A DNA stretch of 64,000 nt from assembly GCA_036496745.1 (NCBI GenBank), contig DASXKQ010000250.1, forward strand, positions 4,684-68,683, read 5' to 3'. The DNA is from Polyangiaceae bacterium (GTDB taxonomy: Bacteria; Myxococcota_A; Polyangia; Polyangiales; Polyangiaceae). Below, piece after piece: positions 16,698 through 64,000 of this stretch. How positions within the stretch are numbered: position 1 is the first letter of the stretch; every line of letters begins with the position of its first letter. The notes below the pieces were generated by a model. That model made no database searches. It saw only the letters and a program-made list of their open reading frames with translations, and had not been told where the DNA came from. Both the position numbers and the translations under genes were made by a program.

Positions 16698-17138
16698 ATG
16701 TCGGACGCGCGCCCTTCATTGGCTGAGCTGGTGAGGCTCGCGCTCGGGGTTCGCTTCTTGCGCTTCGCGGTCGTGGGCACGAGCAACGCCATCCTGAGCT
16801 TCGCCGTGTTTTGGCTCGTATTCCATGAGCTGCCCGCGCTCTCGGCGCGCGCCGGCATCGCGCAACTTTCGAGCTACGCCATCGGCACGGGCTGGAGCTA
16901 TTTCTGGAACCGACGCTGGACGTTCGCGAGCAATCAGAACGTGGCGCGCGAAGCCACCCGCTTTGTCGCGCTGCAGGGCATCTTTGCAGGGCTGAGCTCG
17001 CTCCTAATGTACCTGGCGGTCGACCGTTCTGGGCTGCCCAAAGTCGAGTCTTGGCTCATGGTCATCGCGCTGGTCACGATCCTCAACTTCTTTTTTTCGC
17101 GCTATTGGGTTTTCAAGCCGCCCGCGGCGCACGCGTGA
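16698..17138 (+). CDS. GtrA family protein (putative polyprenyl-phosphate-sugar flippase)
   Basis: RFLRFAVVG, SYFWNRRWTF, LNFFFSRYWVF; about 146 aa with 4 TMs. Confidence 0.92.
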   Translation: MSDARPSLAELVRLALGVRFLRFAVVGTSNAILSFAVFWLVFHELPALSARAGIAQLSSYAIGTGWSYFWNRRWTFASNQNVAREATRFVALQGIFAGLSSLLMYLAVDRSGLPKVESWLMVIALVTILNFFFSRYWVFKPPAAHA

Positions 17139-17143
17139 ATCAC

Positions 17144-18295
17144 TCAGCGGAGCGCGAGTGCGACTTGCTCGCAGATCAGAGCCACATCAGAGCTCGCGAG
17201 CCCGGGATGAAACGGCAGCGTTACGACTCGCTCCGAGTACTGCTCCGTGAGCGGCAGCGACCTCGCTGTCCCGCCGGCAAGGCTCACGTAGTGTGAGAAG
17301 CGATGGATGGGCGGGTAGTGGATACTCGATTGAATCCCGGCGTCGCGCAGTGCCTGCATGAACGCTCGTCGATCGACGCCCGCGGCCAGCACGATCGGCA
17401 GCAAATGGCGTGCGCCCGGCGCGGGCTCGGCGGAAAACGGCAAACCGAGCTTGGGATGCCCCGCGAGTGCCGCGACGTAGTCCGAGAACACGCGGTCACG
17501 CTCGCGATTGTGGCGCTCGAGCTTACCGAGCTGCGCAAGACCGACGGCCGCGGTCAACTCGGGCATGCGGAAATTGTAGCCCAATCCGACCACGTCGTAG
17601 CTGAACGAGTGGCCCTTCATGCGATCCCAGGAGAGCGAAGTCATCCCGTGTGAACGGCGGAGCTTCAGGTCGGCGAACAGATCGGCGTCGTCGGTCGTGA
17701 GCATGCCGCCCTCGCCGGCCGGTAGATTCTTGTTCGCGAAGAAGCTGAAGCAACCGATGTCGCCCAACGTGCCGCACATGCGGCCGTTGACGCGGCTGCC
17801 GACCGAGTGCGCCGCGTCCTCGATCACGCGCAGCGCCTCGGCCCCGCCGAGCGCGCGAATGCCCATGACGTCGCAAGGGTAGCCCGCGTAGTGCATGGGG
17901 ATCACCGCGCGAGTCTTGTCGGTCATCACGGCGCGCACCGTCGCGGGCGTCATCAGCGGCCGCTCTAGCGACTCGATCTCGGCAAAAACGGGCGTAGCGC
18001 CCACGTACAGCACCGCGTTCGCCGTCGCCACGAAGCTCAGCGAGGGCACGATCACTTCGTCACCCGGACCGATGCCAGCGGCCAACATCGCCAGATGCAA
18101 TGCGGCGGTGCAATTGGCCGCCGCCAGCGCGAACCGCGCGCCGATGTACTCTGCGAAGCGCTGCTCGAACTCGCCCGTGCGCGGTCCCTGAGACAGCCAC
18201 TTGGAGCGAATGACCTCGAGCACCGCGCGCTCCTCCGTCTCGTCGAAATCGACGTCGGAGAGCATGTAACGAGGCGTGCTTGGGTTGGCTGTCAT
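17144..18295 (-). CDS. DegT/DnrJ/EryC1/StrS PLP-dependent sugar aminotransferase
   Basis: NCTAALHLA, VPSLSFVATAN, VIEDAAHS, FSFFANKNL..GEGG (PLP lysine), GYNFRM. Confidence 0.95.
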   Translation of the reverse strand: MTANPSTPRYMLSDVDFDETEERAVLEVIRSKWLSQGPRTGEFEQRFAEYIGARFALAAANCTAALHLAMLAAGIGPGDEVIVPSLSFVATANAVLYVGATPVFAEIESLERPLMTPATVRAVMTDKTRAVIPMHYAGYPCDVMGIRALGGAEALRVIEDAAHSVGSRVNGRMCGTLGDIGCFSFFANKNLPAGEGGMLTTDDADLFADLKLRRSHGMTSLSWDRMKGHSFSYDVVGLGYNFRMPELTAAVGLAQLGKLERHNRERDRVFSDYVAALAGHPKLGLPFSAEPAPGARHLLPIVLAAGVDRRAFMQALRDAGIQSSIHYPPIHRFSHYVSLAGGTARSLPLTEQYSERVVTLPFHPGLASSDVALICEQVALALR

Positions 18296-18358
18296 GGCAA
18301 ATGATCCCTGGGTTTCTGTCGAGTACGGCGGGCACTCACACGCAAGGCGTGAATTCGC

Positions 18359-19321
18359 TCAGCGCCGTTCGGTCGGCGGCTTGAGCAGCCGCGCGCGCTC
18401 GTAGCGCTGCAGCTCCTCCAACATCCGGCGATTGACGCTCAGCAGATCACCCAAAATGGCAAGTAGCGCGATCAAGAAACCTGCGATGAGCAGCACCGCC
18501 GTCAGGATCAGCGACTGCACGTGGCCGCTGCCTCGACCCTCGGCGTAATAGGCGAGAAAGCGCGCCGCGATTGTCACGCCGCACAAGAGCGGTACGAGGC
18601 TCACGCTCAAGAAAAAGCGCAACGGTTTGTAGACCACGAAAATCCGAAAAATGGTGAAGATCGAGCGGCGCACGTAGCTGGAAATGCTCTTCACCAAGCG
18701 CGACGGGCGGAGCTCGCCGTTCACGCGGATCGGCACGGATAAAATATTCATGTTCCGCTGTCCGGCCTGGATAATCGTCTCCAGTGTGTAGCTGTAGCGG
18801 CTGAACACGTTGAGCGTCAGGGCCACCTCACGCGACATGGCCCGGAATCCGCTCGGCGCGTCTCGCACGTCCGTGCCGCTCACCAGGCGTACGACCCGAC
18901 TGCCGAGGCGCTGCAGCAGCTTTTTGATCAAGGAAAAGTGCTCGATGCTCTCGATCGGGCGTTCGCCAATCACGAATTCCGCACGGCCGTCGAGGATCGG
19001 CCGCACGAGCTTCTCGATGTCCTGACCGTTGTACTGATTGTCGGCGTCCGTGTTGACGATGATGTCCGCGCCGCGCTCGAGGCAAGCATGAATGCCGAGC
19101 ATGAACGCCTGCGCCAAGCCGCGGTTGTGCGTAAAGCCGACGACGTGGTGCACGCCGTTCTCGCGAGCCACGCGCACGGTGTCGTCGCTGCTCCCGTCGT
19201 TGATCACGAGCAGCTCGAGCTCGTCGATCCCGGCAATCTGCTTTGGCAAATCAGCGAGCGCAATCGCAAGCGTTTGCGCCTCGTTGAAGCACGGTATTTG
19301 GATGATGAGCTTCATGCTCAA
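18359..19321 (-). CDS. GT2 glycosyltransferase (polyprenyl-phosphate glycosyltransferase type)
   Basis: IQIPCFNEA, INDGSSD, VNTDADNQY, DAPSGFRA; two C-terminal TMs. Confidence 0.92.
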   Translation of the reverse strand: MSMKLIIQIPCFNEAQTLAIALADLPKQIAGIDELELLVINDGSSDDTVRVARENGVHHVVGFTHNRGLAQAFMLGIHACLERGADIIVNTDADNQYNGQDIEKLVRPILDGRAEFVIGERPIESIEHFSLIKKLLQRLGSRVVRLVSGTDVRDAPSGFRAMSREVALTLNVFSRYSYTLETIIQAGQRNMNILSVPIRVNGELRPSRLVKSISSYVRRSIFTIFRIFVVYKPLRFFLSVSLVPLLCGVTIAARFLAYYAEGRGSGHVQSLILTAVLLIAGFLIALLAILGDLLSVNRRMLEELQRYERARLLKPPTERR

Positions 19322-20025
19322 TCCGGCAAAATACGCTCACGCAGAGCTTGAAACGTGTTCTGCGCGTCTTCGTAGTCGCTCGGGCGACCGATATCGAGCC
19401 AAATTCCCTCGAAAGGCACGGCGCGCACCGGCTCGCCTTGCGCGAGCAGAACCTTGATCAGCATCGGGAAATCAAAATATTGCTGATCCGGGATGTGCTG
19501 CAGGACGGTCTTGTTGAGCGCGTACACGCCCATGCTCACGTCGTACGAGTACGTGGGTTTTTCGATGTAGTCCGTCACTTTGCCGCTCGGCTCCGAGACG
19601 AGCACCCCCAAATCCACGTTGACCTTCTTTTTGAAGGCGGAGATCGACACGCGCGCGCCGCTCGCTACGTGCTCTCGAAAGAAGTTCGCGTAGTCGAGGT
19701 CCGTGAGCACGTCTCCGTTCATGAGCAAAAAATTCTCGGGCAAGGACTCGACTAGTTTGAGGGGGCCGATCGTGCCGAGCGGCTTGTCCTCCCGCACGTA
19801 GCGCACGGGCAGACCGAGACGCTGCCCGTCACCCAAGAAGGCGATCATGAGTTCTGCCAGGTGACCGACCGAGACCGTTGCCTCCGTCACGCCCGCGCGA
19901 GCCAGCTGTTTGAGCACGATCTCGATGATGGGCTTGTCGCCGATCGGAACCAATGGCTTCGGAAACGTGACGGTATACGGGTAGAGCCGCGTGCCCTTGC
20001 CGCCTGCCAAGATGATCGCTTTCAT
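19318..20025 (-). CDS. Sugar-1-phosphate nucleotidyltransferase
   Basis: MKAIILAGGKGTRLYPYTVTFPKPL, PLGTIG, LMNGDVLTD, WLDIGRP. Confidence 0.95.
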   Translation of the reverse strand: MKAIILAGGKGTRLYPYTVTFPKPLVPIGDKPIIEIVLKQLARAGVTEATVSVGHLAELMIAFLGDGQRLGLPVRYVREDKPLGTIGPLKLVESLPENFLLMNGDVLTDLDYANFFREHVASGARVSISAFKKKVNVDLGVLVSEPSGKVTDYIEKPTYSYDVSMGVYALNKTVLQHIPDQQYFDFPMLIKVLLAQGEPVRAVPFEGIWLDIGRPSDYEDAQNTFQALRERILPD

Positions 20026-20093
20026 GAACCGAACACCACCGACATTCGGCAATCCCTCGCGCAAGGTTAGCGCAGGGTCAAGCCAAAACCCAT

Positions 20094-21038
20094 CTAATCA
20101 GCGGCGCCACGCAGCTCGCGCGCCAAAAGCAAGCCGAGCGCACCGAGAACCGCCTCGCATGCCATGTAGATAACCCGCGTGAGCAGCGGCAAAACGAGCG
20201 CTGCCTCTCTGCCCACGATCGTATCGAGCATGAAGAGTATCGCGCCCTCGCGCACCCCGATGCCACCGGGCACGATGAAGGCCAGAAGTGCAATGGTCCA
20301 GCCGGCGCCCATCGAGCTACCGACGAGCAGCATATCGGTCACGGAGCCCCCGTTAGCGAACGCCAGCCAGGCAGCAACGCCGCCCACGCCGGCCAACGTC
20401 CAATTGAACAGGTAGATCGCGACCAAGCCTAACATTTGCCTAACGGACGGCAGCCGCCAGCTCGCCGGCATGGGTCGGCGCAGAATGCGCATCGTCCCTT
20501 TTAGAACACGCGGCCACCATTGGTAGCTCGCTAGGCCCGTACACGCCACGACCAGCGGAATCAGCGCCAGGGCCTCGGTCGTATGGTCCGCGCGCTCGAA
20601 ACCATAGAGCCCGAGAAACAGCGCGCCCGTCAAAAAACCGGTGTTGATGGCGACCGCCACGCACACGAGGTTCGCCTGAATCAGCGACTCCGCCTCCAGG
20701 CCGTTGCGCGTGGCGCGCTCGATTTGGGACACCAACGCCCAGACTCGGCCCGGCAAGTACTTCAGGAGCGAGCTCACATTGTAAAGCGCGACGGCGCGGG
20801 GCAGCGTGAGCAAATGCGGACGCGCGGCGGTCGCGCGGTACGCGCGTTGAATCGAGACCGTATCCAAGAAGAAGGCCGACAGGTTGACGACGAACGATAC
20901 GGCCAACCAACCCAAACGCAGATGCAGCGAAGCGCGCGAAATTTCGCGCCACTCGCCGAGGCCGGCACGCACGAAAATGACGATAGCCGCGACGATGGCT
21001 GCAGCGCTGGCTAGCGCGCGCAGGCGTGACCAACGCAT
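20094..21038 (-). CDS. UPF0104/LPG-synthase-TM flippase-like membrane protein (1)
   Basis: LLKYLPGRVW and FIVPGGIGVREG; about 8 TMs. Confidence 0.85.
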   Translation of the reverse strand: MRWSRLRALASAAAIVAAIVIFVRAGLGEWREISRASLHLRLGWLAVSFVVNLSAFFLDTVSIQRAYRATAARPHLLTLPRAVALYNVSSLLKYLPGRVWALVSQIERATRNGLEAESLIQANLVCVAVAINTGFLTGALFLGLYGFERADHTTEALALIPLVVACTGLASYQWWPRVLKGTMRILRRPMPASWRLPSVRQMLGLVAIYLFNWTLAGVGGVAAWLAFANGGSVTDMLLVGSSMGAGWTIALLAFIVPGGIGVREGAILFMLDTIVGREAALVLPLLTRVIYMACEAVLGALGLLLARELRGAAD

Positions 21039-21046
21039 GGGTATCG

Positions 21047-22003
21047 TCAGCCCCCGCCGGACAGCACGAGCTTCAGGCCGAGTTGCGCCAGGGGATTACC
21101 GACGAAATAAATGCCGTACGTGTGTTCTTTGGCACCGAAGGATTCTTTGAACTTCTTGACGCCCGCGAGCTTGCCACTCGAACCAAAATTGACGCATTTC
21201 ACGCCGCTCTCGATGGAGTGTTTGATCAAGTCCGCGTGCAACAGGTCGTTGCTGCGTGTGTTCGAGAGCGCCTTGTCCATCCCTCCGAACCAGCCAAAGT
21301 AGTAGTTTCGAAAACGCAGCATGATCAGCGCGGCCGCCGGACGATCCTTGTCGTAGGCGACTCGACACTCCAGAAAGGGCCGCTCGGCGTAGCGTAGGAA
21401 AAAATCGAGGTCGTAGCGCGGCGTGTCGCGTCCCCAGCGCACGTTCGACAGCGCGTACAGCCGATAGAAGTCCCGCACCAATTCCGGCGAACGCCCGACG
21501 CGAATCTCGATCTTGTTCTGCTGCGCGCGCTTGATGTTCTTGCGCATCTTGTGCTCGAAGCTCTTGGCGAGAACGTCCGCCCAGACCCGTCCTTCGGTAT
21601 CGACGATGTGCGCGTAAGAAGCCGACACCGGCGCGGCGGGCAGCCCGTCCAACACCCCTTGAGAAAATGGGTTTTGGAATACGATGCCCATCCCCAGATG
21701 CTTCCTGACCGCCTGCATGATCGCGCCGTAACTTGGAGCGTCCATGCCCTGCGCGGGCAGCACGCCGCCGTAGAGCCCGAACGGCAAGCTCAGCGCCACT
21801 GGATAAACCTTGAACACTCTGCGCGCGAGCAGCGGCACCACGTACCGACCGCGCTCGCTCTCCACGTGCACGGACACATTGCGGAACTTGAGCACCGCAG
21901 CTGAGGTCTCCACGAAATCCCAATCGAGTTCGCTGAAATCGCGCTGCGCCAAAATCTCGTTGAAATCGGCCTCGGTCGCCGTTCGCACTTTGAGCACGAC
22001 CAC
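21047..22003 (-). CDS. GNAT/FemAB-like (Acetyltransf_6) acyl or aminoacyl transferase
   Basis: SLPFGLYGG, HKMRKNIKRA, NDLLHADLIK..FGSS..GVKKFKESFGA. Confidence 0.85.
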   Translation of the reverse strand: MVVLKVRTATEADFNEILAQRDFSELDWDFVETSAAVLKFRNVSVHVESERGRYVVPLLARRVFKVYPVALSLPFGLYGGVLPAQGMDAPSYGAIMQAVRKHLGMGIVFQNPFSQGVLDGLPAAPVSASYAHIVDTEGRVWADVLAKSFEHKMRKNIKRAQQNKIEIRVGRSPELVRDFYRLYALSNVRWGRDTPRYDLDFFLRYAERPFLECRVAYDKDRPAAALIMLRFRNYYFGWFGGMDKALSNTRSNDLLHADLIKHSIESGVKCVNFGSSGKLAGVKKFKESFGAKEHTYGIYFVGNPLAQLGLKLVLSGGG

Positions 22004-22836
22004 TACCGCCCCTTCACGATCATGAGCCCCTGATCGAGCCAGCGCTGTGACGGCAAGCGCAGCCCTCCGGTCGCTCGGTACCAGGCGTCGTCCAGGGCGA
22101 CGAACGACGGGACGAGCTTGCGTAACCCGGCAATCGGCAACCGGCCGAGAAGGGCCAGCCCCCGATAGAATGGACCGTGCATGACGAAGCCGTCGGTTTT
22201 GCGAAGCCAGGCCGGGCCACTCCTGGAACCGAACGCCTCACTGAGCGCCGAGGCAGGACGGTGGCGCTTGTAAATCTCACCGCTGGGTAACGCCTCGTCG
22301 ATTTGCTCTTCAGAAACCTGTTCGATCAAGATGATCTTTCCGCCCGGCCTCGAGACGCGATCGAGCTCGCGGGCCGTCCGCGCGAGGCTTTGTTCGTCGA
22401 CGATATGTTGAATCACCCAAATCGCGATCACACAATCGAACGTGCCGTCATCGAACGGCAGCCTATCGCCATCATAGTGGGCAAAAAGCCGCGCAGGGCG
22501 CTCGCCTGTGTGCCGTTTTGCGCCATCAATCATCTTTTGCGAGCGGTCGACGCCGAAGTATTGCAGGCGGTCGAAAAGACTCCAGCAAGCCAGCCGCCCG
22601 ACGCCGCAACCGAAGTCGAGCACTTTGGCGCCCGGAGCGAGCGCCGTGAGCTCCGCTGCGAGCAAACGCTGGTCGATTAGATCGACATACGCGGCCTTGA
22701 GTCCGCTGCGATCCCCAGGCGAGATCACGCTGTTGAAATTCACGTCCGCAGTGGCGCGCTCGTCCCACATGCTGGTGACGGCCTCGGAGCGGCGCAAGAG
22801 ACCTCGCAGCCGGCCGATCACCGTGGCCTCGACCAT
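22003..22836 (-). CDS. Class I SAM-dependent methyltransferase
   Basis: VLDFGCGVG, FGVDRSQKM, LPFDDGTFD..VIQHI, RVSRPGG. Confidence 0.9.
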   Translation of the reverse strand: MVEATVIGRLRGLLRRSEAVTSMWDERATADVNFNSVISPGDRSGLKAAYVDLIDQRLLAAELTALAPGAKVLDFGCGVGRLACWSLFDRLQYFGVDRSQKMIDGAKRHTGERPARLFAHYDGDRLPFDDGTFDCVIAIWVIQHIVDEQSLARTARELDRVSRPGGKIILIEQVSEEQIDEALPSGEIYKRHRPASALSEAFGSRSGPAWLRKTDGFVMHGPFYRGLALLGRLPIAGLRKLVPSFVALDDAWYRATGGLRLPSQRWLDQGLMIVKGR

Positions 22837-23837
22837 CCCGCGGGGAAGCTCGAGCGCGCCCGAGCCGGGCGCTGTTCGAATTCACGCTCGCGAAATAGCG
22901 CGAAGCGCTCTCGCTCGCTGTCGTGGAAAAGCAGCAGATCGAAATACCGCCGCCGCTCGAGCGCAAACGCGACGAGCTCGTCGATGCGCCGCACGTCGTC
23001 GGTCCTCAATGCAGCGACCTCATCCCCGAGCGAGCTGTAGATCAGGGAGTCGAGGTAGCCGAGCCGCGCCAGGAACGGAAAAATGCTGGCCGGGTCCTCA
23101 CCGACGGCGCGCAAATGCCGGGGCGAAAACTCGAAAAAAAGCGCGGGGCGAGCGTTTGCGAGCAAGTTCGAGGCGCCGCGCAGGACCTTGAAGTCGTAGC
23201 CGTCGGTGTCGCATTTGAGTAGCCCGACGTCCTTGAACGCCGGGTGCTTGGCGGCGACCAAGGCGTCCAACGTCCAAACCGGCACGCGATCGGACTCGCT
23301 TCCGCCTTCGGCGATGAACGACGTGCCCGAGTTTCCGGCATTGGGGCGGAGCTCTACCGGCGCGGGCGTCCCATCACCCGTGTCACTTAGTAGGCACTTC
23401 TCCCAAACGATCGTGGAGCCGCCGTCGCGCGTGATGGTCACCGCGTTCTCGCGCAGGAAAGGCAGAAATCGCTCGTCCGCTTCAATCGCGAGAAAGTCGG
23501 CGGGCACTTCATCGTTCAGTAGCGCGATCGAGTCCCCGATGTTGGCCCCGACATCGATTGTCTTGAGCCGCGCAGCCTGTCCCAGAAAGGCGCCGAGACG
23601 GGGCAGCGCCGTGTCGTACGACGGGTACATTCCGCGATACAGCGGGAGATTGTGGGAAAACGGCATCCGCAACCTCTGTTTGCCGAGCGGGACCGTCACC
23701 GGCGGGTCGGAAAAAATGGAGACCGCGCGTTTGAGGCGCGGCGAGAGGAGACCGATGCCGCGGCCGAGCGCGCGCGACGCCCTGCTCTCGCTCTGGAGGC
23801 AGCGTAGCGTCAGCGCATAGAAGGCTTGGCCGAACAT
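22818..23837 (-). CDS. FkbM family methyltransferase
   Basis: IDVGANIGD, VWTLD, LLKCDTDGYDFKVLRG, LFFEF. Confidence 0.9.
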   Translation of the reverse strand: MFGQAFYALTLRCLQSESRASRALGRGIGLLSPRLKRAVSIFSDPPVTVPLGKQRLRMPFSHNLPLYRGMYPSYDTALPRLGAFLGQAARLKTIDVGANIGDSIALLNDEVPADFLAIEADERFLPFLRENAVTITRDGGSTIVWEKCLLSDTGDGTPAPVELRPNAGNSGTSFIAEGGSESDRVPVWTLDALVAAKHPAFKDVGLLKCDTDGYDFKVLRGASNLLANARPALFFEFSPRHLRAVGEDPASIFPFLARLGYLDSLIYSSLGDEVAALRTDDVRRIDELVAFALERRRYFDLLLFHDSERERFALFREREFEQRPARARSSFPAGWSRPR

Positions 23838-23971: not shown

Positions 23972-25618
23972 ATGCAGGATTTAGGTGGTATTTCGGGGTC
24001 CTCGGTGGCAGCGCCGAGCCCCGGACATGCCGCGCAACGCGCGTCCCCGACCTCCTCCAGCTTTCTGCGAGCGGATGTTCAGGATCTCTTTTTGTTGCTG
24101 GCCATGGTCAGCCTGTGTTGGGTTCGCCGCGTCGCCACACTGCAGCCGGTAAATCCCGGCGGAGACGTCGTCGAGAAGTGGGAGTTCGTTCGGCAGTGGT
24201 TCTATGGGAACCATTTTGCGCACGGCGAGTGGTCGCACCACATGACGCGTTGGGGCGTCAACGTCCTCGCTTACCTGGACCAGGCGCTATTCGGGCACGG
24301 GCTCAGGGCCTACTACATCGTGCCGATCGGCGCGTGCCTGGTGCAAGTCGCGTTCGTCTTCGGTTGCGCGTTGCGGCTCTCTGGGCGCACGGCAGCGGTG
24401 ATCGCCGCCACGATGCTGATCTACGCGCCCATGATGGCAACCGCCGGCTCTCAGCTATTGCCGGACCTGTTCACCGGCACGTATGGGATCATCGCGCTCT
24501 ATCTGTTGCTCTGTTACGCCGACGCAAAACCACCCGCGCGCACGCGCTGGCTGATCGCCTCGGCGGTCGTTTGCTTCTTGGGGTACCTGGCCAAAGAGAC
24601 GATGGTCTTCTTTTTTCCGGGTTTCTTGCTGGCGATCTGGCTGCTCGGGCGGAGGCTGCCGGATCTCGCCGTGTTCGGCATCGTGCTGGCGGCAGGGCTC
24701 GTGCTCGAATGCCTCGCATACCGCTTGTTCACGGACTACCCGAGCCGCCTGGCCATCGTGCGCCTCAGTCACGGTGGCGACGGAGTTCCGACCACGACCT
24801 TTCTCGAACTCTTCGAACGCTACGACAACCTGGACGCGGGTTGGGTGCGCGCATTCTACTTCTTCATCGCGGCGTTCTGCGGCGTGTTCGCCTTCCGCCG
24901 AGACTCGGCTTCTCGCGCCGTACTCGCGGTGGTTGGAAGTTTTCTGTTTTTTCTCACGTTCCTCGTGCGCGGCTGGAATCCGATGCTCCTCTGGCACCGC
25001 TTCCAACCGCGCTACTTCGATCCGTGCGCCCCATTCGTCGAGCTCATAAACGGCCTATTTTTGGCGATGACTCTCCAGCAAGTGCTCGCTCAGTTGAGTC
25101 CCGGTTCGTTGCTGGCCCGGCTGGCGGGGCAGCAACGACTCGGCCTCGGTCTGGTCCTAACCTTGGCGAGCATATTCGGCGTCCTGGAGTACTCGTCATT
25201 CCGCAGGGACTATGCGGGCCACCCCTTCAAGCTGGGGCCCGCGATGGCGGGGCTCGCCAACAATACCTATCGTCGTAACCTTCCGCTCTATTCACGCCAA
25301 CCGGCAACCGGCGGCGGCAGCAAGGAATACTACGACCGCGATCTGCACACGCTCTACGGCGTGTACATGGACGTCAACCTGCTCGTACGTGACGGCCTGC
25401 TCCCGCACTTCGACACGATTAAGCAGGTCTATCGCAGGTACACGTATTTGGTCCGCGACCCCGATGTCTACAGTCCCGCCAAGTTTACCCAATTGATCAG
25501 CAACGGCTGCGGGGTCGAGATCCGGGAGCGGCGCGACAACTTCAGCATGACCCCGATGATGAACCTGCCGGGCTATTGCGACGATCTGCTGGCGCAACAG
25601 CTGCCCGACACGGAGTAA
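23972..25618 (+). CDS. GT-C-fold (GT39/ArnT/PMT-like) polytopic glycosyltransferase (1)
   Basis: About 10 TMs; acidic first loop PGGDVVEKW; SQLLPD; YLAKET; soluble C-terminal domain. Confidence 0.75.
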   Translation: MQDLGGISGSSVAAPSPGHAAQRASPTSSSFLRADVQDLFLLLAMVSLCWVRRVATLQPVNPGGDVVEKWEFVRQWFYGNHFAHGEWSHHMTRWGVNVLAYLDQALFGHGLRAYYIVPIGACLVQVAFVFGCALRLSGRTAAVIAATMLIYAPMMATAGSQLLPDLFTGTYGIIALYLLLCYADAKPPARTRWLIASAVVCFLGYLAKETMVFFFPGFLLAIWLLGRRLPDLAVFGIVLAAGLVLECLAYRLFTDYPSRLAIVRLSHGGDGVPTTTFLELFERYDNLDAGWVRAFYFFIAAFCGVFAFRRDSASRAVLAVVGSFLFFLTFLVRGWNPMLLWHRFQPRYFDPCAPFVELINGLFLAMTLQQVLAQLSPGSLLARLAGQQRLGLGLVLTLASIFGVLEYSSFRRDYAGHPFKLGPAMAGLANNTYRRNLPLYSRQPATGGGSKEYYDRDLHTLYGVYMDVNLLVRDGLLPHFDTIKQVYRRYTYLVRDPDVYSPAKFTQLISNGCGVEIRERRDNFSMTPMMNLPGYCDDLLAQQLPDTE

Positions 25619-25714: not shown

Positions 25715-26692
25715 GTGAGCATGCCGCCCAAGAAAAGGACGCGCGTTGTCGTCGCGCTCGTGCGCTCGCTGCTCGTCGTCGTCGCCCTCGGATACGTCGC
25801 CTACATCGTGAGGCGCGACCTGCCACACTTGTTGCCGCGCATCCTGCCGCTCAGCCCGGAGCGCGCCGGCTGGCTGTGCTTGTCAACCATTCTGCTTGCG
25901 ATCTGTCCACTGTTGTCGATCGGCGTATTCCGGGTGCTCGTCCAACGCTACGGGGACCAGCCCGTGCGTTATCGTGATTGTTTGAAGCTCGTGCTGCTCT
26001 CGAACCTATTGCGACACTTGCCTGGCCGCTTCTTCGGCGTCGCTTACCAGGTCACGACACCGCTGCCCGGCGTCAACGCAGCGAACATGCTGCGCGTGAA
26101 CGTCGAGCAGATGCTGATGTCGCTAGCCGGTAACACGATCGCTGCCGGCGGCATCCTGTGGTTCGGTGGTGGTCATCTCGTAGCCGGGGCGCTCCTGTTC
26201 CTAGCCGCCGCCCCCGCCATGGTGCTGATGCTCAACGCGCGCCTGCCTGGTCCCCTGCGAGAATGGCTGCGGGAGAACGGTCCGGAGCGCCTGCGCAAGC
26301 TCGCGATCGACGAGCCGCGGATCGTTCGCCTGCGTTCATTCTGGCTCGCGGCGCTCTTGAACCTGAGCTCATGGGCGCCTTACTTGCTTGCATGGCATTT
26401 GCTCTCGCGCGTGTTTCCCATGCTCGGCGATCAACCGCTCGCGTTGCTCGGAGCGTCCTATTCGATTGGCTGGGCGGCGGGCACGCTCTCGCTGATCACG
26501 CCGAGCGGCCTCGGCGTGCGCGAAGCAGTTTTTTTGCTGGTCAGCCCTGCGCGCGCCACGACCGAAGCGCTCGCGCTAATCACCATCTTTGGTCGTGTCT
26601 GGCAGCTGCTCGGCGACGTTGTCGCCTGGCTTTTGTTCGCCACCTTCTTACCGGCCCTGCTCGTGAAGCCGAACAGGACGGTGAGCAGTTGA
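25715..26692 (+). CDS. UPF0104/LPG-synthase-TM flippase-like membrane protein (2)
   Basis: NLLRHLPGRFFG and LITPSGLGVREA. Confidence 0.85.
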   Translation: MSMPPKKRTRVVVALVRSLLVVVALGYVAYIVRRDLPHLLPRILPLSPERAGWLCLSTILLAICPLLSIGVFRVLVQRYGDQPVRYRDCLKLVLLSNLLRHLPGRFFGVAYQVTTPLPGVNAANMLRVNVEQMLMSLAGNTIAAGGILWFGGGHLVAGALLFLAAAPAMVLMLNARLPGPLREWLRENGPERLRKLAIDEPRIVRLRSFWLAALLNLSSWAPYLLAWHLLSRVFPMLGDQPLALLGASYSIGWAAGTLSLITPSGLGVREAVFLLVSPARATTEALALITIFGRVWQLLGDVVAWLLFATFLPALLVKPNRTVSS

Positions 26693-26705: not shown

Positions 26706-27410
26706 GTGGCCTGGCTGAGACCGCCAGCGTTCGACGAGCGCGGCTGCAACGTGCTCGATCCAGCCGATCGCTTCGGGATCAAGAGCGATTTCGTGACCCT
26801 GATTCAACACGAAACATTGCGCTCGCACTTACCGCGAGCCGAGCCAGGAGCCGTCGCGGCCGACGTGGGATGCGGCTACGGTCGGCACGCGGGCCTCGTG
26901 CGCTCGCTCGGCTACACGACCATCGGCATCGACCCCGACGCACGCTTCCTCGAGCTCGCACGACACGCCGTGCCCGACGTCGAATTTCGACTCGGAGCTT
27001 TGCCCGACTTGCCGATCGCGTACGAGAGCTGCGATCTGCTTACGATGCTCAGCCTGTGGCGTCCGCTACATCAGCTTGGAGAAACTCGCAAAGCAGTTGG
27101 CGCGGCGCGCTACGTGAAGCCAGGCGGAACGATCGCGATGATCGAGAACATCCGGGCACGCCCGCACCCGCTATTCGTCGAGGAGCGGACCATTCTCGAT
27201 TGGGCGCGCGGCGAGGAACTCGAGCTCACCTTGCGACTGCCATTTCGCCAGGGTCGTCGCCTGTATCTATATTTGATGATGACCGGTCTCTTCCCTCGCA
27301 GCCTGCTGCCCGCGATCGCACGCCGCGAAGCGGCGCAGATGGCCAGAAGGCGCGCCCTCCCGCGCAGCAGCTATTGTAACGTACTCTTCTTGTTCAAAAA
27401 GCCGGGGTGA
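26706..27410 (+). CDS. Class I SAM-dependent methyltransferase
   Basis: ADVGCGYG, IGIDPD, RYVKPGG. Confidence 0.85.
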   Translation: MAWLRPPAFDERGCNVLDPADRFGIKSDFVTLIQHETLRSHLPRAEPGAVAADVGCGYGRHAGLVRSLGYTTIGIDPDARFLELARHAVPDVEFRLGALPDLPIAYESCDLLTMLSLWRPLHQLGETRKAVGAARYVKPGGTIAMIENIRARPHPLFVEERTILDWARGEELELTLRLPFRQGRRLYLYLMMTGLFPRSLLPAIARREAAQMARRRALPRSSYCNVLFLFKKPG

Positions 27411-27420: not shown

Positions 27421-28725
27421 CTACTGTCCCACGGTCCGACGGACGAGCTTGCCGCCCACGCGACGCACCCACGCACGCTGCACGAATCCCCAAGGCGACG
27501 AGTGCATCGCCGTGTAGTCGGCGCGCTTGAGCAGGCCTAGCGCGGTGCCAAACGACGAGCTGCGCGAGCCGTAGTTTCCGGACGCAGCCGCGAGCAAGAG
27601 CAGTTCGGCGCTGATCCAAGTGCGCTGCACCGGCGGTTGTGAAAATCCATTACCGTTCGCTTCCCGGTCGCACAACGTCGCCCAGGTGAAGGCTGCCAGG
27701 GGACGGCCGGCGATTCGCGCCAGCGCGACTTGCAGCCACGCGCGTGGGTTGCATTCCAGAACGCGCCACGCTCCTGACGAGTCCTTCAAAAAGGGGAACT
27801 CGGCAAGACCTTCGAGACCCAAGGCCTCGGCCAGCCGTCGGCCCGCGAGATCGATCTCCGGGTCGACGCGAGTTTCCAGCCAACAGCCGGTGCCGCCCAC
27901 GCGCGGGTGCTTCCAGCGTTCGACCGCCGAAATTTGTCGTATTTGGCCGTGCTTGCTGCGGGCCACCCAGGCGACGGCCTCGCCTTCGGGCGGCGTCTGC
28001 AAGCGCTCTTGCACCAGCCACGCATCGGAGAAAGACCAATTCGCGGTAAGGGCCGCGGAAAGCTCCGCCGGCGACGCATAGGCGCTCGCGGCAAGCAGCT
28101 TGCGGCCGCTGGTGTCGAGCGCGAGCTGCGCGCGAAATGGCTTGAGCGTGGGCTTGATCACGACGTCGGTGCCGAGCTCGTCGAACGCTTCACGCAGTTC
28201 GCGCGGGTGGCGAATCGTCACGCTACGCGGACATAGATCGGCGAGCCCGTTCGCCCGCAAGAAATCGAAGAACTCCGCTTTGTCGAGCCCGCCCGAACGC
28301 AACGCCGTGGCGCGCGGGATTCGGAGTACATGCTCGACAACAGAGCGGTGTTCCAAGAGCAATCGAAGCGTCGCGTCGTCCGTGGCAAACACGGGCAGCG
28401 CGCTCCCCGCGCGCTCGGCCAATGGCGAAGCAAAGCGCAGGATGGCAGCGAGCGCGCTCTGCGACGACGCCGGCCACTCAACCCGCTCGTATGCGACCAG
28501 CTCGGGGACCCCCGCCAAGACGCTGTTCTGCCCGAACGAGATCAACGCGAAGGGAACACCGCAAGCCGCGAGCTCCTCGGCCAGCGACACGCTGACGACT
28601 TCGGACCCTGCGCTGAGCAGAAGCGCCGGCACCGTAGGGTCCGGGTATCGATGATCGAATGAGTGCATCGCTGATGCGAATCTATCGGAGCTGCCACTTA
28701 GACCATGTCTTTGCGCGGTTTCCAA
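27421..28725 (-). CDS. ATP-grasp carboxylate-amine ligase (polysaccharide-cluster type); alternative start at 28668
   Basis: FATDD, LDKAEF, VVIKP, WLVQERL, VLECNPRAW. Confidence 0.8.
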   Translation of the reverse strand: METAQRHGLSGSSDRFASAMHSFDHRYPDPTVPALLLSAGSEVVSVSLAEELAACGVPFALISFGQNSVLAGVPELVAYERVEWPASSQSALAAILRFASPLAERAGSALPVFATDDATLRLLLEHRSVVEHVLRIPRATALRSGGLDKAEFFDFLRANGLADLCPRSVTIRHPRELREAFDELGTDVVIKPTLKPFRAQLALDTSGRKLLAASAYASPAELSAALTANWSFSDAWLVQERLQTPPEGEAVAWVARSKHGQIRQISAVERWKHPRVGGTGCWLETRVDPEIDLAGRRLAEALGLEGLAEFPFLKDSSGAWRVLECNPRAWLQVALARIAGRPLAAFTWATLCDREANGNGFSQPPVQRTWISAELLLLAAASGNYGSRSSSFGTALGLLKRADYTAMHSSPWGFVQRAWVRRVGGKLVRRTVGQ

Positions 28726-37226: not shown

Positions 37227-37230
37227 TTTG

Positions 37231-53712: not shown

Positions 53713-56118
53713 ATGGGGCTCGCTGAACGCGGGATCGCGGGACTGCGCACACGGTGGCGTGAGGGCGCTGCGGCGCTGCTCCTGGTCGCCGGGGTCGCGC
53801 TGTTCGCCGCTGTGGGCAACCAGCACTATCCGATCGCCGACTGGCTGTTCTGGCACTATGCCGTGTATTGGCTGGCTTCGCTCGCCTGCGTGGTCGCCTG
53901 CTTCGGCATCGGCTCGGCAAGCCTGCGCGCTCTAGGACTGCGTGGCCTGCGCACCTTGGAGCACTTGAGCCTAGCCTTCGCCCTGGGCTTGTTCGAGTTC
54001 GAGCTTGCCATGTTCTTGCTCGGTGCACTGCACCTTTATCGAGCGGTTCTGTTCTTCACGCTGCCGATCGGGCTAGTCGTCGTGAGCTTCAACGAGCTCC
54101 GCTCACTCTGGTCACACCTTCGCCGGCGCGAACGTCGACTCGCGCGCTACCGGCCGCCACTCGGCAGCGCGGGCGCGCTCGCGCTCGCATTCGGTTTCGT
54201 GGGACTGCTCGCCGTCTACTTCATGATCTTGTCGCCGGAAAACGTCGAGTTCGACTCGCGTTGGAAGCATCTCGCGCTCGCCGAGGACTACGTTTCCTTC
54301 GGCGGTATTCGGCCGTTGATGGAGGGCTGGATGTTCGACGCGCGCCCTCATTTCACGAGCTACCTCTACGCCTGGGCGTTTCTGCTGCCGAAAAGCAGCC
54401 TCTTCGATCGCATGCTGCTGTCGGCGCACTTGGAGTTCGTGGCGTTTTTGGTAACGACGCTGGTCGGCATTCCGGCACTCGTCCGCCGACTGGCACCGCG
54501 CGCCGATCCCCGCGTCGTGTGGGCGGCGCGCTTCCTATTTCCCGGTGTGCTGCTTTATGACAGCAGCCTCGCGGCCGGCGCCGATCATTTCGGCGCAATG
54601 TACGGCGTTCCGATCTGCCTAGCGACGTTGTTCGCGTGGCGGGCGCTCTCGGCGCGCTGGTGCGTATTGCTCGGAGCCCTACTCGCAGCGGCGACACTCG
54701 TAAAAGAGACGACCGCGCTCTTGCTCGTACCGATCCCTGTGATCGCGATCGCCGTTCGACTCGGAGTGCTGCAGGTGCGTGCGTTCCGCGCACCGAAAAC
54801 CGGCGACCTGTTCGCGCTGATGCGCGGCCCGTTGTTCGCCGCGGCGACCGCGCTGCTGTGCAGTGCGCCGCTCTGGCTCACCAATTGGCTTTGGCACGGC
54901 GACCCGCTATATCCGGCGCTCAACCGCTATCTTTCGCCGCGTCCTTGGACCAGTGAATCCGCGTACAAACTCAAGTGGGCGTATGAAGAGGCGAACCTGT
55001 GGCAGCCTTCCCATGATCTATCTGGGCTCCTCAGCTCGCTGAAAGCGCTCGCCACCTTTTCGTTTCTGCCGAACGACTGGTCCAGTTTTCACGGCAAGAC
55101 CCCCGTCTTCGGCTCGCTGTTCACCCTGCTCATTCCGGCGCTGCTTTTTTGTCGCGCGCGCTTGCGGCTATGGCTCGTGATCGGTTGGGTGCACGCGGCC
55201 ATTTTTTGTTGGTTTTGGATTCACCACCAAGATCGCTACTTGCAAGGCATTCTGCCGTTGATGACGGCCGCGACCTGCGCGGCCGTACTGGTCGTCTGGC
55301 GAACGGGGCTCGCGGCGCGCTGCGCGCTTTCGGCGCTGATTGGGCTCCAGGTCGTGTGGGGTGGGGACGTCTACTTCATCCAAACGCACCCCCTCGCAAA
55401 ATCACCGCTCAAGAAGAGCATCGATCTGCTGTCGGCGGGTTTCGAGCGCAAATACGAACAACGTTTTTCGATTCAAGAGGCATGGCAGCAAGTAGCGCGC
55501 GTACTCCCGAAGCGCTCCCGGGTCGTCGTCCACGACGAGAACAACCACCTTGGCCTCGAGGCGCAGGTGGTCATGGATCGCTTTCCGTTCGAATACGGCA
55601 TCAGCTACGGCTTGCAACAAACGCCGGCGGACGTGTTTCGCCTGTACCGAAGCCTGGGCGCGACGCACATCTTGTGGAACCAACGCAGCAAGGGCACCGA
55701 CTCGCTCGCCGGGGACATCATGTTCTGGGACTTCGTGATCCGGCGCGCGCCGAGCCTCGGGATTTTCGGCAGCACGCATCTATCCAAAATGCCAGATGCC
55801 GCACCCGCCGCCCCGTTCAACCCGACCGTGGCAGTCTTTCCCTGTCCGGGCTCGTACCCTGCGGGGTTTTATCGCGTGTCGGATCTACGCGTGCCGGTAT
55901 ACGGGCCGCAGAGCTCGCTTTTCCCCGCCGCGCCGCGCGCGCCCTTGGGCCCCGATTGGCCGAGCGCCCTCGAAAAAACCAGCGAGATCGTCGTCGCCGA
56001 TCTGCGCTGCTTTCAAGACGCGGCCAGACTCACAGCGCTCGGCTACGAGAAGATCGTGGACCGCGGTCACCCGCCAGGCACGCGCGGTCAAGACTATTCG
56101 CTTTGGCTCAAGCACTGA
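53713..56118 (+). CDS. GT-C-like polytopic membrane protein (7)
   Basis: About 15 TMs; loop EFDSRWKHL; LVKET; GDPLYP; QDRY; soluble C-terminus. Confidence 0.65.
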   Translation: MGLAERGIAGLRTRWREGAAALLLVAGVALFAAVGNQHYPIADWLFWHYAVYWLASLACVVACFGIGSASLRALGLRGLRTLEHLSLAFALGLFEFELAMFLLGALHLYRAVLFFTLPIGLVVVSFNELRSLWSHLRRRERRLARYRPPLGSAGALALAFGFVGLLAVYFMILSPENVEFDSRWKHLALAEDYVSFGGIRPLMEGWMFDARPHFTSYLYAWAFLLPKSSLFDRMLLSAHLEFVAFLVTTLVGIPALVRRLAPRADPRVVWAARFLFPGVLLYDSSLAAGADHFGAMYGVPICLATLFAWRALSARWCVLLGALLAAATLVKETTALLLVPIPVIAIAVRLGVLQVRAFRAPKTGDLFALMRGPLFAAATALLCSAPLWLTNWLWHGDPLYPALNRYLSPRPWTSESAYKLKWAYEEANLWQPSHDLSGLLSSLKALATFSFLPNDWSSFHGKTPVFGSLFTLLIPALLFCRARLRLWLVIGWVHAAIFCWFWIHHQDRYLQGILPLMTAATCAAVLVVWRTGLAARCALSALIGLQVVWGGDVYFIQTHPLAKSPLKKSIDLLSAGFERKYEQRFSIQEAWQQVARVLPKRSRVVVHDENNHLGLEAQVVMDRFPFEYGISYGLQQTPADVFRLYRSLGATHILWNQRSKGTDSLAGDIMFWDFVIRRAPSLGIFGSTHLSKMPDAAPAAPFNPTVAVFPCPGSYPAGFYRVSDLRVPVYGPQSSLFPAAPRAPLGPDWPSALEKTSEIVVADLRCFQDAARLTALGYEKIVDRGHPPGTRGQDYSLWLKH

Positions 56119-61713: not shown

Positions 61714-61729
61714 TGAGCGCTGCCCCGCT

Positions 61730-61958
61730 ACAAACTACGGTCCCAGGGCGCTGGGCGGACTGAGCATTGGCCACATCTCAACCTCAACCAGCAGCATTCC
61801 TGGGGCGCCGGGGCAAAGCCCCGCAACGTGACACATCGGGCCCGGAACACCAGATCGCGGAGCGGAACTGATAACAAGACCCAACGCGAGCCGGCGAACC
61901 CGGCGCATGCTTCGTAGCGGCTCGCGGAAGTCGCCCAACTTGGTGCGTGCGACTACAC
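61730..61958 (-). ncRNA. Candidate structured small RNA between convergent genes
   Basis: Promoter-like TTCAAG-N17-TAGGTT (61993-61965) followed by several stem-loops. I do not recognise a known Rfam family. Confidence 0.3.
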
Positions 61959-62229
61959 CCAAATAACCTACTTTTTTAGCACTACTGCTTGAAATTTGAG
62001 ATTTTCTCGAGAATTTCGCGACTTTCGGAGTGAGCTCTGGGCTTGCTTCGAGGTCCTGCGATCGAGGCGGGCCGTGTGCGAAACGGGCTCTGGTCCACCA
62101 CTTCGGGTGCCACGGGGCGCGGTCGCCCAGTTTTTGTTTTCTTGGGTCTCGCCTCCCTTTGCCGATCGGGGCGCTTCGACGCACCCGAAGGGGTGAGATC
62201 TGATCGTCCCAAAGTCTGAAGCGGTAGTG

Positions 62230-64000
62230 TTAGTGATCCTTGGGACCCTCGTCGTATGAGCGTGGCCGGTACTTTTTCGGCACGCCCGAGTTGAGCGTGC
62301 CGTTGTAGACGAGATCGCTCGCCAGAAACGCCAGCCAACTGCCCGGATACTTGTCGCCTAAATCGAGGAGCTCGTCTTTGTGAGCAAGCGCGCCCTTTTC
62401 GTCCCATAAGCACTGCAGCGCGAGCGCGATCAAGTTGGAGTCGTTGGGCGCGAGCTCGAAACCGCGCACGTAGTGAGGAAACGCCTCTTCCGGTCGGTGC
62501 ATGCGGCACAGAGTGTCCCCGTAGTACACGTGCGCCATCGCCCACTGCGGGGCTAGCCGCACGGCCTCCGCGTTGATCGCCAAGCGTTCGGACAGCTTGC
62601 CGCGCGCGCCGAGCATCACGGAGTAGTTGAGTTGTGCTTTCGCGCTGAGCGGCGCGGCATTGCGAGTGGACCGCCAAAACATCAGGTCGTCGGTGTAGTC
62701 GATGGCGTGCGATCGCGCTTGGATGACTTGTACGGCGAAGAACGCGACAGCTATGCGAACGGGCAATCGTCCCCGTGCGCGCTCGAGCAGCAAGGCGAGC
62801 GCGCTCGACGAGCCGAGCACCGGCAAATACCAAAAGCGCTCGGCCCGCACCGTGGGCAAGAGTACCGGGATGTTGGAGTGTGGAAAGTACGCGACAGGCA
62901 GCCAAACCAGCGCCACCCCCAACAGCACGAGCGAGCTCGTCTCGAACCGCAACGACTCGGCGAGCCCATCACCGGCGACTCGGCGCCGAACCCGGCTCTC
63001 GCGCACGAGTGCCGCGACCCACAACGCAACTCCGCACAAGGGAGGCACCACGAGCAGGGCGCCTCCGAGCACGCTACCCGGGAAGAGCAGACTCTTGGGC
63101 ACCGGTTCTTGGGCGAACGAGTAGTCCCCACTGAGCGTCCACGGGAATACTACCTGGCCGAAGCCGCGCGCGTAAACGCGCAGCGCGCCTGCCACGCGAT
63201 GAGGGAAGTCCGCGTCCACTAGCGGATTGTTGATCGCGTCGTGCGGCAACTGTGGCTGTTGAAACCAGTGCAAGAACGCCACGAACCCGCGGGAAAATGC
63301 GGTGCCCCCGGGCAATGCGGAAACGGGCGAGCTGCCATCGGCAACCGGGTAGAAGTGTTTGCGCACGAGCGTGTAGACGACGAGCGCGGCGGTCGCCATC
63401 ACGAAGCAAATAAGAGCGCGCAGGAAGCGCAGCGGGGTTTTGGAGTGAAAGAGCGGCGCGCTCAGCAAGGCTGCCCAAGGCAGGAGCGGCAGCGTCACGA
63501 GCACGCTCTCTTTGCTGAAGAGGCCGAGTAAGCACGTCGCGAATACGACCGCCGGCATGGCCAGCAGAGAGCGGCGCAAGGCGTGGAGTCCCAGCAGCAC
63601 GAACAGCCCGGCCAACACGTCGGCAATCCCGACCACACCGGTAACGGCTTCCGTCAACACGGCGCTGCTCAGAAAGCACGCGCCTGCCAACCAGCCCGCC
63701 GCGCGCCGGCGCGTGATCGCGAACACGAAGCCCGCGAGCAGCGCCGCGTTCGCCGCGTGTACCACGACGTTCACGCAGTGGTGCAAGAATGGCTCATGGC
63801 TCACGTACCAGAGCGCGCGCCAGATCAAGTCGGGCAGCGGTCGATAGGAGCCGATGCTGCGCGTCGGCGGCAACCCCCAGAAATCCACCTTGAACGCGTG
63901 CCAGATGGGCCCGGCTTTGCCGTTGACGAATGGATTGGCGAGCAGCGCCTCTTGCTCGTCGAAGATGTAATTCGAGAGCGGGCTGCGCACGAAAATCAGC
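62230..64000 (-). CDS. TMTC-like (DUF1736) GT-C protein O-glycosyltransferase with TPR (8); 5'-partial
   Basis: YIFDEQ, SYRPL, HHCVNVVVHA, TEAVTGVVG.ADVL, FSKES, LSGDYS, AERFWYLP, then TPR helices. Confidence 0.85.
   Translation of the reverse strand, partial: LIFVRSPLSNYIFDEQEALLANPFVNGKAGPIWHAFKVDFWGLPPTRSIGSYRPLPDLIWRALWYVSHEPFLHHCVNVVVHAANAALLAGFVFAITRRRAAGWLAGACFLSSAVLTEAVTGVVGIADVLAGLFVLLGLHALRRSLLAMPAVVFATCLLGLFSKESVLVTLPLLPWAALLSAPLFHSKTPLRFLRALICFVMATAALVVYTLVRKHFYPVADGSSPVSALPGGTAFSRGFVAFLHWFQQPQLPHDAINNPLVDADFPHRVAGALRVYARGFGQVVFPWTLSGDYSFAQEPVPKSLLFPGSVLGGALLVVPPLCGVALWVAALVRESRVRRRVAGDGLAESLRFETSSLVLLGVALVWLPVAYFPHSNIPVLLPTVRAERFWYLPVLGSSSALALLLERARGRLPVRIAVAFFAVQVIQARSHAIDYTDDLMFWRSTRNAAPLSAKAQLNYSVMLGARGKLSERLAINAEAVRLAPQWAMAHVYYGDTLCRMHRPEEAFPHYVRGFELAPNDSNLIALALQCLWDEKGALAHKDELLDLGDKYPGSWLAFLASDLVYNGTLNSGVPKKYRPRSYDEGPKDH

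Follow-up and report, generated by a model that had tools for sequence, protein, structure and literature searches.

Periplasmic glycosylation by systems of three components is well established (PMC11127046), and the described examples include O-antigen glucosylation by GtrB, GtrA and a Gtr* enzyme, the CsbB/GtcA/YfhO, PpgS/Rv3632/Rv3779 and PgfS/PgfM1/PgfM2 sets and the GT136 system of C. youngae (PMC11127046, PMC8035078). What these have in common is that a family 2 glycosyltransferase (GT2) with C-terminal transmembrane (TM) helices, a candidate flippase and a GT-C transferase are encoded together, and that genes for polymer export are not needed. In archaea the UPF0104 protein has been predicted to be a flippase, being fused to the AglD GT2 and having PMT/STT3-like genes as neighbours (Makarova et al. 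2015, PMC5898192); a 2022 preprint gave the same domain the name PplT and listed its fusions to glycosyltransferases, and GpgF and HexF tie it to glycolipids. The present analysis concerns a 64,000-nucleotide stretch of DNA (the window; positions 4684-68683 of a 95-kb contig) from an uncultured soil myxobacterium of the Polyangiaceae, whose metagenome-assembled genome (MAG) comprises 7.05 Mb in 374 contigs at 65% GC. Between 16.5 and 64 kb of the window lie the genes for eight polytopic proteins, in which an acidic motif occurs early, and for three GT2 enzymes, one GtrA protein and four UPF0104-like proteins; several glycosylation modules of the three-component Gtr/Arn type are probably gathered side by side in this region. 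A preliminary description of the same DNA had proposed an undescribed kind of system, a claim that falls before the three-component scheme and the archaeal flippase prediction cited above, both of which are already known; what is new here is a GT-C family lacking a Pfam model, the recurrent linkage of GT2, UPF0104 and GT-C genes in bacteria, and their local density.

Open reading frames (ORFs) were chosen by third-position GC and scanned against Pfam and NCBIfam. The eight polytopic proteins named in the preliminary description all begin where it had placed them, each has 7-11 predicted TM helices, and in all eight an acidic motif follows shortly after an early TM helix (GGD, LGD, NAD, EQD, VDN, NFD, EFD and FDE). 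That about eight of them are GT-C transferases was borne out in part: the assignment is supported for five, two by the Pfam family PMT_2, two by AlphaFold2 (AF2) models compared with known structures by Foldseek and one through its orthologues, while the matches of the proteins at 32132 and 53713 are sub-threshold and that at 62230 remains unproven. The two PMT_2 proteins are GTC1 (23972..25618, + strand; 33.0 bits against a cut-off of 26.1), which is 38% identical to GTC2, and GTC2 itself (28826..30415, +; 41.2 bits against the same cut-off), whose best homologues in the genus are just ~40% identical and patchily distributed. The PMT_2-like protein at 42186..43895 (+) carries a C-terminal DUF6798 domain (58.8 bits), and among 12 of its orthologues PMT_2 matches were found in ten (best E 3e-6) and PTPS_related matches in two.

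The comparison with GT-C structures proposed in the preliminary description was made for two proteins, with a uniform outcome. GTC3 (30510..32135, +) belongs to a family without a Pfam model, its 96 homologues being nearly all Polyangiaceae proteins devoid of Pfam domains. Its AF2 model, built from 48 homologues, has a predicted local distance difference test score (pLDDT) of 92.7, and all 21 significant matches in the PDB (E <= 0.001) are GT-C enzymes, with TMq values up to 0.60 and including yeast and human STT3, DPY19, AglB, ArnT, AftA, AftB and PglB, so that the protein is described here as a transferase of the predicted GT-C_A fold. Residues D48 and E51, directly after TM1 and predicted to face the periplasm, are at least 90% conserved. 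The DUF2079 protein (45882..47882, -; PF09852, 164 bits) was modelled from 61 diverse homologues with a pLDDT of 95.2; its 24 best PDB matches are likewise GT-C enzymes without exception, and D212, which would also be periplasmic, is nearly invariant. The structures matched by the modelled proteins include those of AftA, AftB, AftD and Emb. When the PDB was searched by sequence and by profile, no meaningful relative of GTC2, DUF2079, GTC3 or UPF0104 was retrieved, and only the comparison of folds succeeded. A GT-C fold is thereby newly assigned, on the strength of models, to DUF2079 and to the Pfam-less Polyangiaceae family of GTC3; no paper on DUF2079 and none tying myxobacteria to GT-C enzymes was found in the literature searched.

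Three further polytopic proteins are less clear. GTC4 (32132..33583, +), whose gene overlaps that of GTC3 by 4 nt, is a probable GT-C with a sub-threshold PMT_2 match (21.1 bits, E 4e-4), and so is GTC801 (53713..56118, +; 801 aa, 6 nt after TsaD), at 20.3 bits and E 7e-4. GTC661 (62230..64000, -, running on to window-equivalent position 64215) has a TPR-like C-terminus and an invariant IFDEQE motif after TM1; a hidden Markov model of its family matches a paralogue whose own PMT_2 score is sub-threshold, and some sources label its homologues as TPR proteins or as protein O-mannosyl-transferases. No Pfam GT-C match occurs among 21 members of the family, which show weak TPR matches only. Alignment of GTC661 with three GT-C alignments by hhalign was not significant, but this cannot be used to judge the protein because the same method is non-significant even between GT-C families that share the fold. 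A ninth GT-C gene lies just outside the window, at window-equivalent positions 71250-72680 (L001:9934-11364, +; PMT_2 34.5 bits), where it overlaps the end of a gene for a ParA-like/DnaJ/HTH protein; it is 57% identical to its counterpart in one relative.

The description of three GT2 enzymes with C-terminal TM segments proved correct: each has two such helices and aligns over its full length to the ArnC, PgfS or AglJ models. GT2a (18359..19321, -) is AglJ/PpgS-like, GT2b (41147..42199, -) is PgfS/ArnC-like (PgfS 220 bits, ArnC 147 bits, both full length) and GT2c (43953..44969, +) resembles ArnC, PgfS and AglJ (ArnC 165 bits over 7-295 of 316 model positions). Because these alignments run from end to end yet all scores lie under the equivalog cut-offs (for ArnC at most 165 against 529), the three are placed in the polyprenyl-phosphate glycosyltransferase group with their sugar specificity unassigned. 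In relatives GT2a is 72-77% identical and stands beside varying GT-C genes; GT2c is 80-84% identical in close relatives.

The one GtrA protein and four UPF0104-like proteins of the preliminary description were also recovered. The GtrA-family protein, a small membrane protein and candidate polyprenyl-phosphate-sugar flippase, is encoded at 16551..17138 (+) and is clearly recognised by PF04138 (78.2 bits against a cut-off of 26.1). One UPF0104-like gene, for a 7-TM protein resembling the MprF flippase domain (20094..21038, -; BLASTP links and TM prediction), lies inside a sugar-activation operon; another (25715..26692, +) is 96 nt downstream of GTC1 and its product is 49% identical to that of the copy at 36231..37262 (-), which covers 3-292 of 302 positions of PF03706 at 26.1 bits against a cut-off of 33.4; the last (44971..45894, -) is directly downstream of DUF2079 and has orthologues that match PF03706. 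The four are mutually linked by BLASTP at 26-49% identity, and in an alignment of these copies with 16 orthologues of the 44971 protein PF03706 was matched in 12 of the 20 sequences (best E 5.6e-15), and it is these links and the matching orthologues that suggest their membership of UPF0104. In no domain of life, to our knowledge, have the flippases of polyprenyl- and dolichyl-phosphate monosaccharides been proven, and even GtrA is credited with flipping by inference only. Four of the five candidate flippases here are of the UPF0104/MprF-domain type, which is not established for three-component systems, rather than GtrA, SMR or MATE proteins, and one is a GtrA. No paper connecting bacterial UPF0104 with GT-C enzymes was found, and no fusion of UPF0104 to DUF2079 occurs among the 150 closest DUF2079 representatives.

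The scheme that these components suggest is the familiar one. A GT2 of the ArnC/GtrB/AglJ type, anchored by its two C-terminal TM helices, would move a monosaccharide from a nucleotide sugar to polyprenyl phosphate at the cytoplasmic face; GtrA or one of the four UPF0104 paralogues would flip the lipid-phosphate-sugar to the periplasmic leaflet; and GT-C enzymes would pass the sugar to periplasmic acceptors by means of the conserved acidic residue of the first periplasmic loop. What the analysis demonstrates are folds, family relationships, gene adjacency and conservation, whereas the donor lipid, the sugars, the flipping by UPF0104 and the acceptors are inferred; the proteins, lipid A or other lipids that the preliminary description named as targets are conjectural. 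The donor/flippase/transferase logic of the preliminary description thus holds up in that the GT2s are ArnC/GtrB/AglJ-like, candidate flippases stand beside or inside the same operons, and no protein tested is Wzy- or WaaL-like. Its statement that export genes are missing was equally sound: a scan of ~45 ORFs, which extended from 16.5 kb to the end of the window at 64 kb and through a further 18 kb of the contig, turned up none of the Pfam families that represent Wzx, Wzy, Wzz or another polysaccharide co-polymerase (PCP), outer membrane polysaccharide export proteins (OPX), ABC exporters or phosphoglycosyltransferases of the WbaP/WecA type.

The pairings of GT-C with UPF0104 and of GT-C with GT2 genes noted in the preliminary description recur in relatives. 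A core conserved across the genus consists of GT2b, the DUF6798 GT-C with GT2c, DUF2079 with UPF0104, GTC801 and GTC661. The block TsaD-lipoprotein-TPR / DUF2079-UPF0104 is kept across the genus at 55-69% identity, and DUF2079 and UPF0104 are adjacent in 25 of the 31 loci with enough flanking sequence. In a subset of genomes this block is followed by GT2c, DUF6798, GT2b, GT2a, GTC4 and GTC3; in another subset GTC801 takes the place of DUF6798, between GT2c and UPF0104-DUF2079. One relative has DUF2079-GT2-GTC3-x-x-UPF0104 / GT2c-DUF6798 / UPF0104 within ~12 kb beside TsaD/TPR, and because of this compaction the core genes are viewed as a super-cluster whose order was shuffled and whose members were dispersed in the genome analysed here. 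For the GTC3 family, six contigs carrying homologues were compared: a PF03706 gene lies within 3 kb in four and GtrA 5-6 kb away in the other two, and a GT2 gene is directly upstream in four of the six. On an unrelated metagenome contig the order is GT2 / UPF0104 and then GT-C, with overlapping starts and stops. Two contigs have instead GT4, a short-chain dehydrogenase/reductase (SDR), GTC3, UPF0104 and a methyltransferase, mirroring the right end of the insert described below. Elsewhere in the same genome, DUF2079, a GTC801-like gene, a GT2c-like gene and PMT_2 are grouped on contig C201, and DUF2079 adjoins a GT2b-like gene on C155; on contigs C33 and C220 two further genes, canonical for PF03706, lie 2-6 kb from PMT_2 genes.

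Some other members of the conserved neighbourhood deserve mention. Divergent from DUF2079 and 84 bp away is a gene for a 1367-aa TPR/HEAT protein (47967-52070, +), in which a signal peptide is followed by a Pro/Ala/Ser/Thr-rich linker of ~50 aa; many orthologues with a readable N-terminus keep this layout, and the linker varies in sequence. This protein could be an acceptor for O-glycosylation or a scaffold. The genes for agmatine deiminase and N-carbamoylputrescine amidase (39151-41150, -) are flanked by GT2, GT-C and UPF0104 genes here and always so across the genus, aguB overlapping GT2b by 4 nt; either simple synteny or a link in function may account for their placement. For a metallophosphoesterase encoded at 59137-61101 (+), which bears a carbohydrate-binding CBM9 domain, the syntenic regions of five relatives offer no counterpart; in relative G015 a CBM9 protein adjoins GT2a.

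The remainder of the region is variable. The 21 kb from 16.2 to 37.2 kb, between tRNA-Leu/GtrA and RluD, hold four GT-C genes, three UPF0104 genes, GT2a, an amino-sugar pathway and tailoring enzymes, at a GC content slightly under the genome mean. They are regarded as a strain-specific insert into a plastic site because the gap between tRNA-Leu and RluD is short or differently filled in relatives: the same tRNA-Leu is 115 bp from RluD in G020, the gap holds GT2a and a PMT-family GT-C only in G003, and GtrA is 27 bp and ~1 kb from RluD in L067 and L069, respectively. In the syntenic regions of five relatives there is no counterpart of the DegT, nucleotidylyltransferase, FemAB, methyltransferase, ATP-grasp and GT4 genes or of the three other UPF0104 copies, and for LegB there are only distant SDR homologues of 26-31% identity. 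The left landmark is tRNA-Leu(TAG) (16078..16161, -, located by ARAGORN), and no att-like tRNA repeats bound the insert. A classic tRNA-integrated island was therefore rejected, the single partial tRNA copy being at the edge of another, small islet, across the tRNA from the insert. That copy (14452-14505), exact over 54 nt, is separated from the intact gene by 1.6 kb, and relatives have between one and three of the kind; integration seems to have occurred at tRNA-Leu repeatedly, and separately from the glycosylation insert. In G020 an insertion of 21 kb separates the gene next to RluD from aguA (L016:14465 to L017:15539); it carries two GH5 cellulases, a CE2/GDSL esterase, a DUF1552 protein and a PhyH-Rieske oxygenase, and thus also marks the neighbourhood as plastic.

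Seven genes of the insert form an operon, judged by order and tight spacing: an FkbM-family methyltransferase and a Methyltransf_11 protein (22818-23837 and 22003-22836, together 22003..23837, -), a FemAB/GNAT-type (Acetyltransf_6) acyl- or aminoacyl-transferase (21047..22003, -), these three identified by family scans, UPF0104, a sugar-1-phosphate nucleotidylyltransferase (19318..20064, -; PF00483, 138 bits) that overlaps GT2a by 4 nt, GT2a and, last, a sugar aminotransferase of the DegT/PseC/ArnB type (17144..18295, -; PF01041, 364 bits), which scores 323 bits against PseC and 281 against ArnB, both under the equivalog cut-offs (ArnB cut-off 631). A second operon, recognised from gene spacing, comprises GTC2, GTC3 and GTC4. 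Also in the insert are a further methyltransferase (26706..27410, +; Pfam scan), an ATP-grasp-like ligase with weak matches (27421..28725, -; PF15632 E 0.0015, PRK06849 E 1e-8), a LegB-type NAD-dependent 4,6-dehydratase of nucleoside diphosphate (NDP) N-acetylhexosamine (HexNAc) (33615..34601, -; TIGR04180, 486 bits against a cut-off of 475) and a cytoplasmic glycosyltransferase of family 4 (GT4, GT-B fold; 34641..35777, -; PF00534, 108 bits). Given the dehydratase together with the seven-gene operon, an NDP-4-amino-4,6-dideoxy-HexNAc-type sugar would be expected, made by the nucleotidylyltransferase, the LegB-type enzyme and the DegT aminotransferase. It may be N-acylated or aminoacylated by the FemAB/GNAT protein and methylated, with the ATP-grasp protein and three methyltransferases as putative tailoring enzymes, after which GT2a would load it onto lipid for flipping and for use by GTC1-4.

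Comparison with described systems places these modules more closely. From known three-component systems they differ, besides the type of flippase, in having many GT-C enzymes per GT2, in the families involved (DUF2079, DUF6798-PMT_2 and the Pfam-less family) and in the aggregation of several modules. The Arn pathway, in which ArnB, ArnC and ArnT bring 4-amino-4-deoxy-L-arabinose (L-Ara4N) to lipid A, shares with the insert a DegT-type aminotransferase, an ArnC-like GT2 and a PMT_2/ArnT-like GT-C, but here there is no ArnA, ArnD or ArnE/F, there are extra acyl/aminoacyl and methyl tailoring enzymes, and the LegB-type dehydratase predicts a 4-amino-4,6-dideoxy-HexNAc rather than Ara4N. Membership of the Arn pathway was rejected on these absences (ArnA, ArnD and SMR genes) and on the scores (ArnB 281 against 631, ArnC at most 165 against 529). 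The legionaminic acid pathway was rejected too: LegB passes its threshold (486 against 475) but the LegC-like score is 233 against 420, and the Pfam and NCBIfam scans of the window showed no hydrolysing epimerase, nonulosonate synthase or CMP-transferase. The archaeal AglD triad has the same three parts, a DPMS/AglJ-like GT2, UPF0104 as predicted flippase and a GT-C; the locus described here differs in being bacterial, in having the genes separate rather than fused, in a four-fold multiplication and in the addition of GtrA, and the archaeal role is itself a prediction. The mycobacterial decaprenyl-phosphate-sugar cascades (Emb, AftA-D, MptA/B, PimE) likewise employ many GT-C enzymes and lipid-phosphate-monosaccharide donors outside the membrane, but here the host is Gram-negative and there are no DPPR synthase or DprE genes.

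An important consideration is whether the region is one system or several. Genes for RluD, a secreted protein, the two polyamine enzymes, the TPR/HEAT protein, TsaD, PilZ and FHA proteins and the phosphoesterase are interspersed among the glycosylation genes, and because of this, and because 16.2-37.2 kb is strain-specific and the remainder genus core, the region is several modules rather than one system; the single combinatorial system of the preliminary description was accordingly abandoned. These interspersed genes also weigh against the modular reading itself, as do a number of other points. No window copy of UPF0104 reaches the PF03706 cut-off, three having no Pfam match whatever; PDB profile searches with these copies did not retrieve MprF structures; and the characterised relatives MprF, GpgF and HexF are tied to the translocation of phospholipids or glycolipids, not of polyprenyl-phosphate sugars. 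There are only three GT2 donors for eight or nine GT-C enzymes, and GT-C status is unproven for the protein at 62230 and weak for those at 32132 and 53713. The genome is an uncultured MAG. Finally, the co-occurrence that the preliminary description proposed to test across Myxococcota was seen in the genus and in the GTC3-family loci but is rare at the level of the phylum, where just 2 of about 33 DUF2079 genes have in their vicinity a PF03706 gene that Pfam can detect. The test at that scale is insensitive, however, because the Pfam model misses three of the four window copies and scores the fourth under cut-off, so the pairing of DUF2079 with PF03706 is either lineage-specific or masked by the divergence of UPF0104.

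These points raise the question of what else the UPF0104 proteins could be. They might be translocators of modified membrane lipids produced by neighbouring GT4 or GT2 enzymes, as are MprF, GpgF (glucosaminyl-phosphatidylglycerol of P. aeruginosa) and HexF (C. difficile), in which a PF03706/COG0392 domain likewise accompanies lipid-modifying glycosyltransferases, and the GT-C genes would then simply share an envelope-remodelling neighbourhood. The characterised relatives do work with lipid-modifying enzymes, the 36231 copy is upstream of GT4 and LegB, and sets of GT4, SDR and UPF0104 recur by GTC3 homologues with no adjacent GT2. We nevertheless consider this improbable. One UPF0104 gene is embedded among sugar-activation genes and GT2a, and two others directly follow GT-C genes; the overlapping GT2 / UPF0104-GT-C order is found on the unrelated metagenome contig; archaeal AglD fuses the domain to a GT2 of the Dol-P-sugar type; and neither an aminoacyl-phosphatidylglycerol synthase domain nor a deacetylase was found in the Pfam scans of the window, for which reason membership of the MprF system was rejected. 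With GT-C and ArnC-like GT2 enzymes as the partners, a polyprenyl-phosphate-sugar cargo is indicated over a phospholipid. It is very unlikely that the co-location is largely fortuitous, an accident of unrelated membrane glycosyltransferases in a genome rich in GT-C enzymes. GT-C richness is indeed phylum-wide, with 3-40 PMT_2 matches per Myxococcota genome, and the interspersed housekeeping genes would suit an accident; but six of the 20 PMT_2 matches of this genome sit on a contig that makes up 1.35% of it, all four divergent UPF0104 paralogues and the sole GtrA detectable by tblastn are located here, and the same families remain linked across the genus with their order shuffled. The clustering exceeds chance.

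Mycobacteria build arabinan and mannan by the sequential action of GT-C enzymes on polyprenyl-phosphate-monosaccharide donors, and the GT-C enzymes here might similarly work one after another until an entire extracytoplasmic glycan, or an oligosaccharide linked to protein, is assembled, in which case genes for cytoplasmic polymerisation and export would not be needed. The presence of eight or nine GT-C genes with no Wzx, Wzy or ABC genes, the operon of GTC2, GTC3 and GTC4, the structural matches to AftA, AftB, AftD and Emb and the joint travel of GT-C genes as a super-cluster in relatives all accord with this, yet no primer- or anchor-forming enzyme was identified, and the GT-C set differs strongly among species of one genus, so that decoration, or a diversity resembling that of serotypes, fits better than an essential polymer; on balance sequential building is rather unlikely. 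A similarly doubtful extension would have donor-specific UPF0104 flippases each feeding particular GT-C enzymes which jointly build, rather than merely decorate, a periplasmic glycan, as a Gram-negative counterpart of the assembly lines of the endoplasmic reticulum lumen and of mycobacteria; the TPR/HEAT protein with its linker would be one candidate acceptor. The hypervariability of the insert between species and its nucleotide-sugar genes recall O-antigen loci, and the preliminary description had noted that Wzy or WaaL folds, with Wzx or ABC export nearby, would make this an ordinary O-antigen or exopolysaccharide (EPS) locus. The outcome was otherwise. No tested protein resembles WaaL or Wzy, the matches of the two models being to STT3, ArnT, DPY19 and Aft enzymes, and families for Wzx, Wzy_C, PCP, OPX, ABC export and phosphoglycosyltransferases are all missing from the scanned ORFs. 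On both grounds, the missing export, polymerisation and initiation families and the GT-C folds, the reading as an O-antigen or EPS locus was rejected, and we give it hardly any credence.

The interest of the modular arrangement lies in the repeated occurrence, in this genome and its uncultured Polyangiaceae genus, of paralogues of the MprF flippase domain beside ArnC-like GT2 and GT-C genes, which therefore offer several natural gene sets in which the flipping of polyprenyl-phosphate sugars by UPF0104 could be tested. The site beside tRNA-Leu is a hotspot at which genes for envelope glycosylation are exchanged between species, and its variation is probably relevant to the diversity of the myxobacterial surface in encounters with phage, in predator-prey interactions or in kin recognition.

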